From NCBI RefSeq assembly GCF_003334355.1, contig NZ_QOWP01000054.1: a stretch of 11,358 nucleotides of DNA; one strand, 5' to 3'. The notes below the pieces were generated by a model, which was not told the origin of the DNA, did no database searches, and saw nothing but the letters and a program-made list of their open reading frames with translations. Source of the DNA: Escherichia coli. Its GTDB lineage: Bacteria; Pseudomonadota; Gammaproteobacteria; Enterobacterales; Enterobacteriaceae. The position numbers and the translations under genes are program-made. Below are positions 3,617-4,162 of the stretch, one piece after another (position 1 is the first letter of the stretch; each line of letters opens with the position of its first letter).

Positions 3617-4162
3617 ATGATGATTTTGGTGACGGGGGGCGCACGGAGCGGGAAGAGTCGCCACGCAGAGGCGCTTATTGGGGACTCTTCACAGGTTCTG
3701 TATATCGCTACCTCGCAAATCCTTGATGATGAGATGGCTGCACGGATAGAACATCATCGGCAAGGCCGCCCGGAGCACTGGCGCACAGTGGAGCGCTGGC
3801 AACATCTTGATGAATTAATTCATGCAGACATTAACCCGAATGAGGTTGTGTTGCTTGAATGCGTTACCACAATGGTGACTAATCTGTTGTTTGATTATGG
3901 CGGCAATAAAGACCCTGATGAATGGGATTATCAGGCGATGGAACAGGCGATTAATGCTGAGATTCAGTCGTTGATTGCTGCCTGCCAACGTTGCCCCGCA
4001 AAGGTTGTATTAGTGACTAACGAAGTGGGAATGGGGATTGTGCCGGAGAGTCGTCTGGCACGACATTTTCGTGATATTGCCGGGCGGGTAAATCAGCAGT
4101 TGGCCGCTGCGGCAAATGAAGTATGGCTGGTGGTTTCGGGTATTGGAGTAAAAATCAAATGA
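3617..4162 (+). CDS. cobU: Adenosylcobinamide kinase / adenosylcobinamide-phosphate guanylyltransferase CobU
   Basis: 181 aa with a Walker A P-loop (GGARSGKS), matching E. coli CobU as recalled. AGGTG Shine-Dalgarno 6 nt upstream of ATG 3617. Confidence 0.95.

Follow-up and report, generated by a model that had tools for sequence, protein, structure and literature searches.

The cobUST genes and their surroundings

The window, i.e. the whole stretch of Escherichia coli DNA that was analysed (11,358 nt), carries the genes cobU, cobS and cobT next to each other on one strand (Table 1). The identities and coordinates proposed for them in a first-pass annotation were upheld by NCBIfam equivalog models applied at their curated cut-offs. 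CobU exceeded the cut-off of NF004469 (161), CobS scored 306.9 bits against TIGR00317 (cut-off of 110), covering model positions 1–241 out of 241 with its residue 1 on model position 1, and CobT scored 392.9 bits against TIGR03160 (cut-off of 319.3). The stop codon of cobS was found at 4900–4902, and the 11 nt that had been noted between cobS and cobT correspond to a gap (4903–4913) reading AGAGACGTGAC. With CobU, CobS and CobT present, adjacent and encoded on the same strand, these genes form a nucleotide-loop-assembly operon, which is predicted to assemble the cobalamin nucleotide loop from salvaged cobinamide. This function (cobinamide plus DMB to cobalamin) is known for E. coli K-12, for which the Keio cobU, cobS and cobT mutants have been used as AdoCbl-synthesis mutants (PMC5718407).

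The three genes do not evolve at the same pace. CobS, a polytopic membrane protein that has been reported to be toxic when overproduced, was 95–98% identical among the Escherichia lineages compared with the window (L003–L007), as opposed to 87–92% for CobU, and the dN/dS of cobU (0.10–0.16) was several-fold above that of cobS (0.03–0.06).

The cobU region was present in 5,402 out of 5,426 complete E. coli genomes (megablast), the best match being strain PSS-12, which was 100% identical over 3300–4200. The window corresponds to the K-12-type 44-min region (cobU-cobS-cobT-ldtA-asnV-nac-cbl-asnU-yeeO-asnW), whose layout is the same in DH5a. Upstream of cobU, the RefSeq annotation of the matching genomes shows a disrupted gene for a TonB-dependent receptor together with IS fragments, and these upstream 3.3 kb of the window are IS-scarred junk standing in place of the pdu/cbi region of other strains. 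Moreover, nac, cbl and yeeO are interspersed with three tRNA-Asn genes. At the place that asnV occupies in the window, after ldtA, strain AREA_C483 has a block of hypothetical genes, which suggests an island insertion at this tRNA. Finally, yeeO (9534–11177) appears in the ORF listing as a 547-aa frame from a TTG directly after asnU, while PGAP gives 495 aa from a start further downstream, so the longer start is probably unused.

Table 1. Features of the window and of the riboswitch-bearing locus used for comparison
Feature	Position	Strand	Basis or remark
IS2 transposase fragment	80–1059		transferred from PGAP annotation of PSS-12
IS3-family fragment	1076–1257		transferred from PGAP annotation of PSS-12
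Truncated TonB-dependent receptor plug-domain pseudogene (yoeA-like)	1445–1945	-	transferred from PGAP annotation of PSS-12
IS4-family remnant	3125–3313		
3′ remnant (pseudogene) of a CbiG-N-terminal-like ORF	3322–3465	+	cut off at its 5′ side beside the IS4-family remnant
Decayed cbiP 3′ end	3466–3620	+	DNA alignment to the last ~150 nt of Citrobacter/Salmonella cbiP
Sigma-70 promoter of cobUST, TTGAGA-16-TATATT	3488–3515	+	sole promoter-like site in 2900–6200
cobU, adenosylcobinamide kinase/adenosylcobinamide-phosphate guanylyltransferase, 181 aa	3617–4162	+	NF004469, 248 bits, full length; PGAP
GGAG Shine-Dalgarno sequence for cobS	4145–4148	+	inside cobU codons Gly177-Val178, 10 nt upstream of the ATG
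ATGA stop/start overlap	4159–4162	+	cobS ATG 4159–4161, cobU TGA 4160–4162; three bases common to both
cobS, adenosylcobinamide-GDP ribazoletransferase (cobalamin synthase), 247 aa	4159–4902	+	TIGR00317
cobT, nicotinate-nucleotide--dimethylbenzimidazole phosphoribosyltransferase, 359 aa	4914–5993	+	TIGR03160
tRNA-Asn(GTT), asnV by position	7046–7121	-	Rfam, score identical for all three
tRNA-Asn(GTT), asnU by position	9454–9529	-	Rfam, score identical for all three
tRNA-Asn(GTT), asnW by position	11278–11353	+	Rfam, score identical for all three
Cobalamin riboswitch RF00174 in E. coli M00057 (locus L082, own numbering)	3342–3516		110 bits, E 2e-28; between pocR and the 145-aa ORF

Conservation of the cobU-cobS junction

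The boundary between cobU and cobS reads GGAGTAAAAATCAAATGAGTAAA, with an A at 4159 and the TGA at 4160–4162. This direct reading, together with the PGAP annotation of near-identical E. coli genomes, verified the overlap of the cobS ATG with the cobU TGA that had been described from the window alone. The same 4-nt overlap is found in the RefSeq/PGAP annotation of the matching E. coli genomes, among them that of DH5a, a derivative of K-12. However, the ORF listing gives the cobS frame as 4123–4902, from an upstream in-frame ATG that is the first of this ORF, and the frame is open from 4123. Were this the true start, CobS would be a 259-aa protein, its gene would overlap cobU by 40 nt and the ATGA would not be a functional junction. 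This is very improbable and was rejected, as the ATG at 4123 is restricted to Escherichia (it is missing from E. albertii, Citrobacter, Salmonella, Raoultella, Kluyvera and Buttiauxella), the anti-Shine-Dalgarno match preceding it is negligible (−1.7 kcal/mol), and both the alignment of TIGR00317 position 1 to the Met at 4159 and the PGAP annotation favour the start at 4159.

To describe the junction beyond E. coli, 79 loci with CobS relatives were collected, taking one genome per species, and in each of them the stop of cobU and the possible starts of cobS were mapped. The ATGA junction appeared in all 56 enterobacterial loci (L001–L056), which belong to Escherichia, Citrobacter, Salmonella, Raoultella, Enterobacter, Kluyvera, Pseudocitrobacter, Buttiauxella and Intestinirhabdus. 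Furthermore, it recurs outside this set in an unclassified Enterobacterales MAG (L061), in two clostridial MAGs (L070 and L073) and in Paenibacillus (L079). The junction is thus invariant over lineages separated by dS >1, while the cobS-cobT spacer is 11 nt in the window and 13–68 nt in other enterobacteria, a contrast between the two junctions that is real. The cobU-cobS overlap is clearly conserved and maintained at this locus rather than accidental. Part of this conservation is forced by dual coding, since any change in the ATGA destroys either the start or the stop, and the GIGVKIK tail of CobU, conserved at the protein level, also contributes to it. In addition, the motif itself is nothing unusual: among co-oriented gene pairs of prokaryotes, no other spacing is nearly as common as NTGA (PMC12548453), and about 15% of such pairs overlap (PMC6728339).

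A Shine-Dalgarno sequence for cobS within the last codons of cobU

A GGAG motif built from the cobU codons Gly177 (GGA) and Val178 (GTN) precedes the cobS start. Its predicted duplex with the 16S rRNA 3′ end (−5.9 kcal/mol) was the strongest of the three genes, followed by those of cobU (−3.8 kcal/mol) and cobT (−2.9 kcal/mol), which was the weakest. The 10 nt between this motif and the AUG are a longer spacing than optimal.

The synonymous sites of this region were compared among 54 distinct enterobacterial cobU sequences, comprising those of loci L001–L056, the window and L082. The Gly177 codon was GGA in 52 sequences and GGG in the other two, whereas all four codons were used freely at the eight other conserved glycine columns of cobU. 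In particular, the third-position entropy of Gly177 (0.23 bits vs. a mean of 1.42 bits) was the lowest of 38 conserved four-fold columns. Moreover, Lys179 and Lys181, which lie in the spacer, were AAA in 54 out of 54 sequences, compared with 32 AAA and 22 AAG at Lys13. Given the bias at Gly177 and the invariant AAA codons, the last five codons of cobU are under synonymous-site selection, consistent with a Shine-Dalgarno sequence and an A-rich spacer serving cobS.

The A-rich spacer could also be read in another way, as its run of five A (4150–4154) might allow a −1 ribosomal frameshift fusing CobU to CobS, given that cobS lies in the −1 frame of cobU and that the three codons from the run to the ATG are open in that frame. 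The chance of this is minimal, and the fusion was rejected: the run does not form a canonical X XXY YYZ heptamer, folding revealed no downstream stimulatory structure, and the slip site is not conserved, since the run is interrupted in Citrobacter and Salmonella (GTCAAAATT). Furthermore, we know of no CobU-CobS fusion.

The first-pass annotation had read the overlap as translational coupling and had set against it the case of an independent ribosome-binding site for cobS. Such a site does exist, i.e. the GGAG with its −5.9 kcal/mol, although coupling is not thereby refuted, as most overlapping gene pairs have a Shine-Dalgarno sequence of this kind (PMC6728339). Conversely, as cobS has its own Shine-Dalgarno sequence, coupling cannot be read from the overlap alone.

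Promoter and gene remnants upstream of cobU

The promoter found upstream of cobU is identical to the TTGAGA-16-TATATT that a genomic SELEX study lists at 44.47 min as a constitutive RpoD promoter of cobUST (PMC3946193). It most likely drives the operon, leaving a leader of ~95 nt, and it is kept in E. coli M00057. It lies ~100 nt upstream of cobU, inside the decayed 3′ end of cbiP. The homologous coding sequence of Citrobacter is a poorer promoter match, so the origin of the promoter may lie in coding DNA that was already dead. The sequence TTACGCG-N10-CGCGTAA (3514–3537), a palindrome with perfect 7-bp arms, overlaps both the −10 hexamer and the probable start site; it was rejected as an operator, for its right arm is unconserved in other Escherichia and it is probably due to chance.

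The earlier view that cobU is preceded by no cbi genes holds for function and fails for history, as remnants of two of them occupy this DNA (Table 1). The remnant of cbiP shares 93–96 out of 151 bases with the tails of Citrobacter cbiP genes, with z-scores against shuffled sequences of 17–19 (Citrobacter) and 9 (Salmonella). Furthermore, its TGA (3618–3620) still overlaps the ATG of cobU within an ATGA (3617–3620), the same overlap by which the intact cbiP meets cobU in Citrobacter and Salmonella. Comparison of the Citrobacter and Salmonella CbiP proteins with this region gave weak collinear matches (E-values of 0.04–1.4), and the assignment rests on the DNA alignment and the shuffling rather than on the proteins. 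The body of the Citrobacter cbiP had no blastn match in any of the 5,426 complete E. coli genomes, so E. coli as sampled is salvage-only. The description of the locus as salvage-only was therefore sound, no functional cbi gene preceding cobU.

The second remnant corresponds to a sequence annotated by PGAP as an incomplete cobalamin biosynthesis protein missing its N-terminus. Compared with E. coli M00057, it has lost 9 nt by deletion and is interrupted by a premature stop. Intact copies of this CbiG-like ORF (144–145 aa) were found in E. albertii, E. whittamii, other Escherichia lineages and some E. coli, among them those of L082 (3735–4172), L003 (3890–4324) and L008 (515–949). The first 122 residues of the intact ORF matched positions 1–130 out of 351 of NF004463 (cobalt-precorrin 5A hydrolase, CbiG) with an E-value of 7.7e−20, although the 145-aa ORF had no significant Pfam domain, and the 47-aa or 70-aa remnant of the window alone had no NCBIfam match. 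A protein database search returned proteins of Escherichia and Shigella only, with no relatives of the 145-aa ORF outside these two, its word index being one that would miss a distant full-length CbiG. For this reason the ORF appears to represent a genus-restricted family of remnants rather than a stand-alone domain of wide distribution. With dN/dS values of 0.36–0.61, it evolves faster than cobU or cobS. Nevertheless, it has remained open in five lineages, for each of which the probability of an open frame under random substitution, given the divergence observed, is 0.03–0.07. Its short product may have a function; alternatively, its translation may be maintained on account of polarity.

Loss of the cobalamin riboswitch

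Inspection had suggested that no B12 riboswitch lies upstream of cobU, and this was borne out by a scan with 4,227 Rfam families. At the gathering threshold, the matches in the window were the three tRNA-Asn genes only, with no cobalamin riboswitch (RF00174) anywhere in the window, and none was found in 2800–3700 at E ≤10 either, which places the operon of the window outside the class under RF00174 control. Weak matches in this last interval, to MicC (17.9 bits vs. a gathering score of 90) and to eukaryotic families, were discarded as due to chance. As a positive control, the same scan found RF00174 upstream of cobUST in E. coli M00057, whose order is pduBA, pduF, pocR, cobalamin riboswitch, 145-aa ORF and cobUST. 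The window aligns to this arrangement from ~3321 onward, beside the IS4-family fragment. A 501-nt probe comprising the M00057 riboswitch and the start of the ORF matched 645 out of 5,426 complete E. coli genomes. Thus, ~12% of them still have pocR, the riboswitch and the CbiG-like ORF upstream of cobUST, and in the light of these genomes the absence of the riboswitch is a derived loss, common to the window and K-12, not a general property of E. coli.

A further-reaching reading, which we consider unlikely, is that the ancestral Escherichia unit was a B12-riboswitch salvage operon (riboswitch, ORF and cobUST) that lost the riboswitch and the ORF in most E. coli, the window included, by an IS-associated truncation, leaving cobUST constitutive. 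As part of it, the 145-aa ORF may have been kept open by selection, either for corrinoid salvage or for ribosomes on the leader counteracting Rho polarity. If this were true, cobUST would have gone from B12-repressed to constitutive, with a promoter arising inside the dead tail of cbiP, and the GGAG/AAA/AAA codons at the end of cobU would be the sole remaining control of the dose of toxic CobS.

Plausible translational coupling of cobS to cobU

The genes cobU, cobS and cobT would be carried on one mRNA starting near 3522. Sequence scans found no promoter-like site in 3516–6200 and no terminator-like site at the cobU-cobS junction. Terminator-like hairpins inside cobU (4038–4063) and cobT were at chance level (4 found vs. 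3.0 expected). On this mRNA, ribosomes ending cobU at the UGA (4160–4162) would be placed right on the AUG of cobS, where some of them would reinitiate (termination-reinitiation), helped by the GGAG. As no masking of the site by structure was detected, free 30S subunits would probably also start cobS de novo. The net effect would be a CobS level tied to that of CobU, for which the toxicity of CobS in excess provides a physiological reason.

Precedents for this are found among native ATGA pairs of E. coli, four out of five of which were coupled by termination-reinitiation, with the removal of the Shine-Dalgarno sequence reducing reinitiation also in four out of five (PMC6728339). The remaining uncoupled pair, bioBF, uses de novo initiation and lacks extended structure around its initiation region (PMC6728339). 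The cobU-cobS junction is likewise unstructured: folds of 61–101 nt at the junction revealed no significant RNA structure masking the cobS start when compared with shuffled sequences (z-scores from 0.0 to 0.85), so that a masking structure, on which coupling by the 'RNA unfolding' model depends, finds no support. For this reason, cobS could be mostly initiated de novo, as in bioBF, by 30S subunits at its own GGAG and AUG, the overlap being a frozen compact junction without coupling. This is a live rival, if the less favoured one. The conserved and comparatively strong Shine-Dalgarno sequence of cobS would suit it, and so would the ease with which ATGA junctions arise and stabilise themselves (PMC12548453). 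However, coupling was the outcome for most of the tested E. coli ATGA pairs, the junction has stayed invariant over lineages in which the cobS-cobT spacing drifts freely, and the cobS AUG is weakly accessible in a 200-nt context (probability of being unpaired of 0.11).

Taken together, the best explanation, with a probability of about 85%, is a chromosomal cobUST salvage operon with a conserved ATGA junction, a Shine-Dalgarno sequence for cobS, a sigma-70 promoter and plausible coupling. Within it, a translation of cobS measurably dependent on that of cobU, by reinitiation, is somewhat probable, while all the other parts taken jointly are close to certain.

Comparison with known systems

The cobUST operon of E. 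coli K-12 was reportedly described by Lawrence & Roth in 1995 (J Bacteriol 177:6371). The operon, its salvage-only role and the 4-nt junction are already known and present in every annotated E. coli genome, and the finding is ordinary in that it concerns the commonest junction type in a well-known B12 salvage operon of E. coli. Three small additions are mildly new. Firstly, there is quantitative synonymous-site evidence for a cobS Shine-Dalgarno sequence inside cobU, which fits the reported toxicity of excess CobS. Secondly, the 'intergenic' DNA before cobU is made of cbiP and cbiG-like fossils that now carry a constitutive promoter. Thirdly, the riboswitch leader is polymorphic within E. coli, which calls for caution against generalising B12 regulation from K-12.

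Compared with K-12, the window has the same genes in the same order, with the 4-nt overlap, the cbiG-like remnant, the promoter and the neighbours (ldtA, asnV, nac and cbl) also in common, and over 3300–4200 it is 99.4% identical to DH5a, a derivative of K-12. The two differ upstream of the cbiG-like remnant, where an intact IS5 lies at a distance of ~250 bp in K-12, whereas the window has an IS4-family fragment only. In the pdu-positive E. coli, such as M00057, cobUST and 300 nt upstream are ~95% identical to the window; however, these strains have retained an intact CbiG-like ORF as well as an RF00174 aptamer (110 bits), both of which the window lost at ~3321.

The cob operon of Salmonella and Citrobacter (cbiA-P cobUST, under the control of PocR and of a cobalamin riboswitch) has an ATGA junction and a GGAG identical in kind to those of the window, and its CobS is 81–85% identical to the window CobS. 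Moreover, its cbiP-cobU ATGA overlap survives in the window as a fossil (3617–3620). In contrast, the window lacks pocR and the riboswitch leader as well as the 17 cbi genes, and its promoter sits in the cbiP fossil.

Finally, the cobU-cobS pair belongs to the class of −4 nt (NTGA) overlaps, having the shared stop and start of this class in its ATGA. It resembles the coupled pairs hyfHI, astDB, ydbH/ynbE as well as menDH (PMC6728339) in its ATGA geometry and in the Shine-Dalgarno sequence inside the upstream gene, and it resembles the uncoupled bioBF (PMC6728339) in its unstructured local RNA, being itself a pair from outside the set tested in that study.
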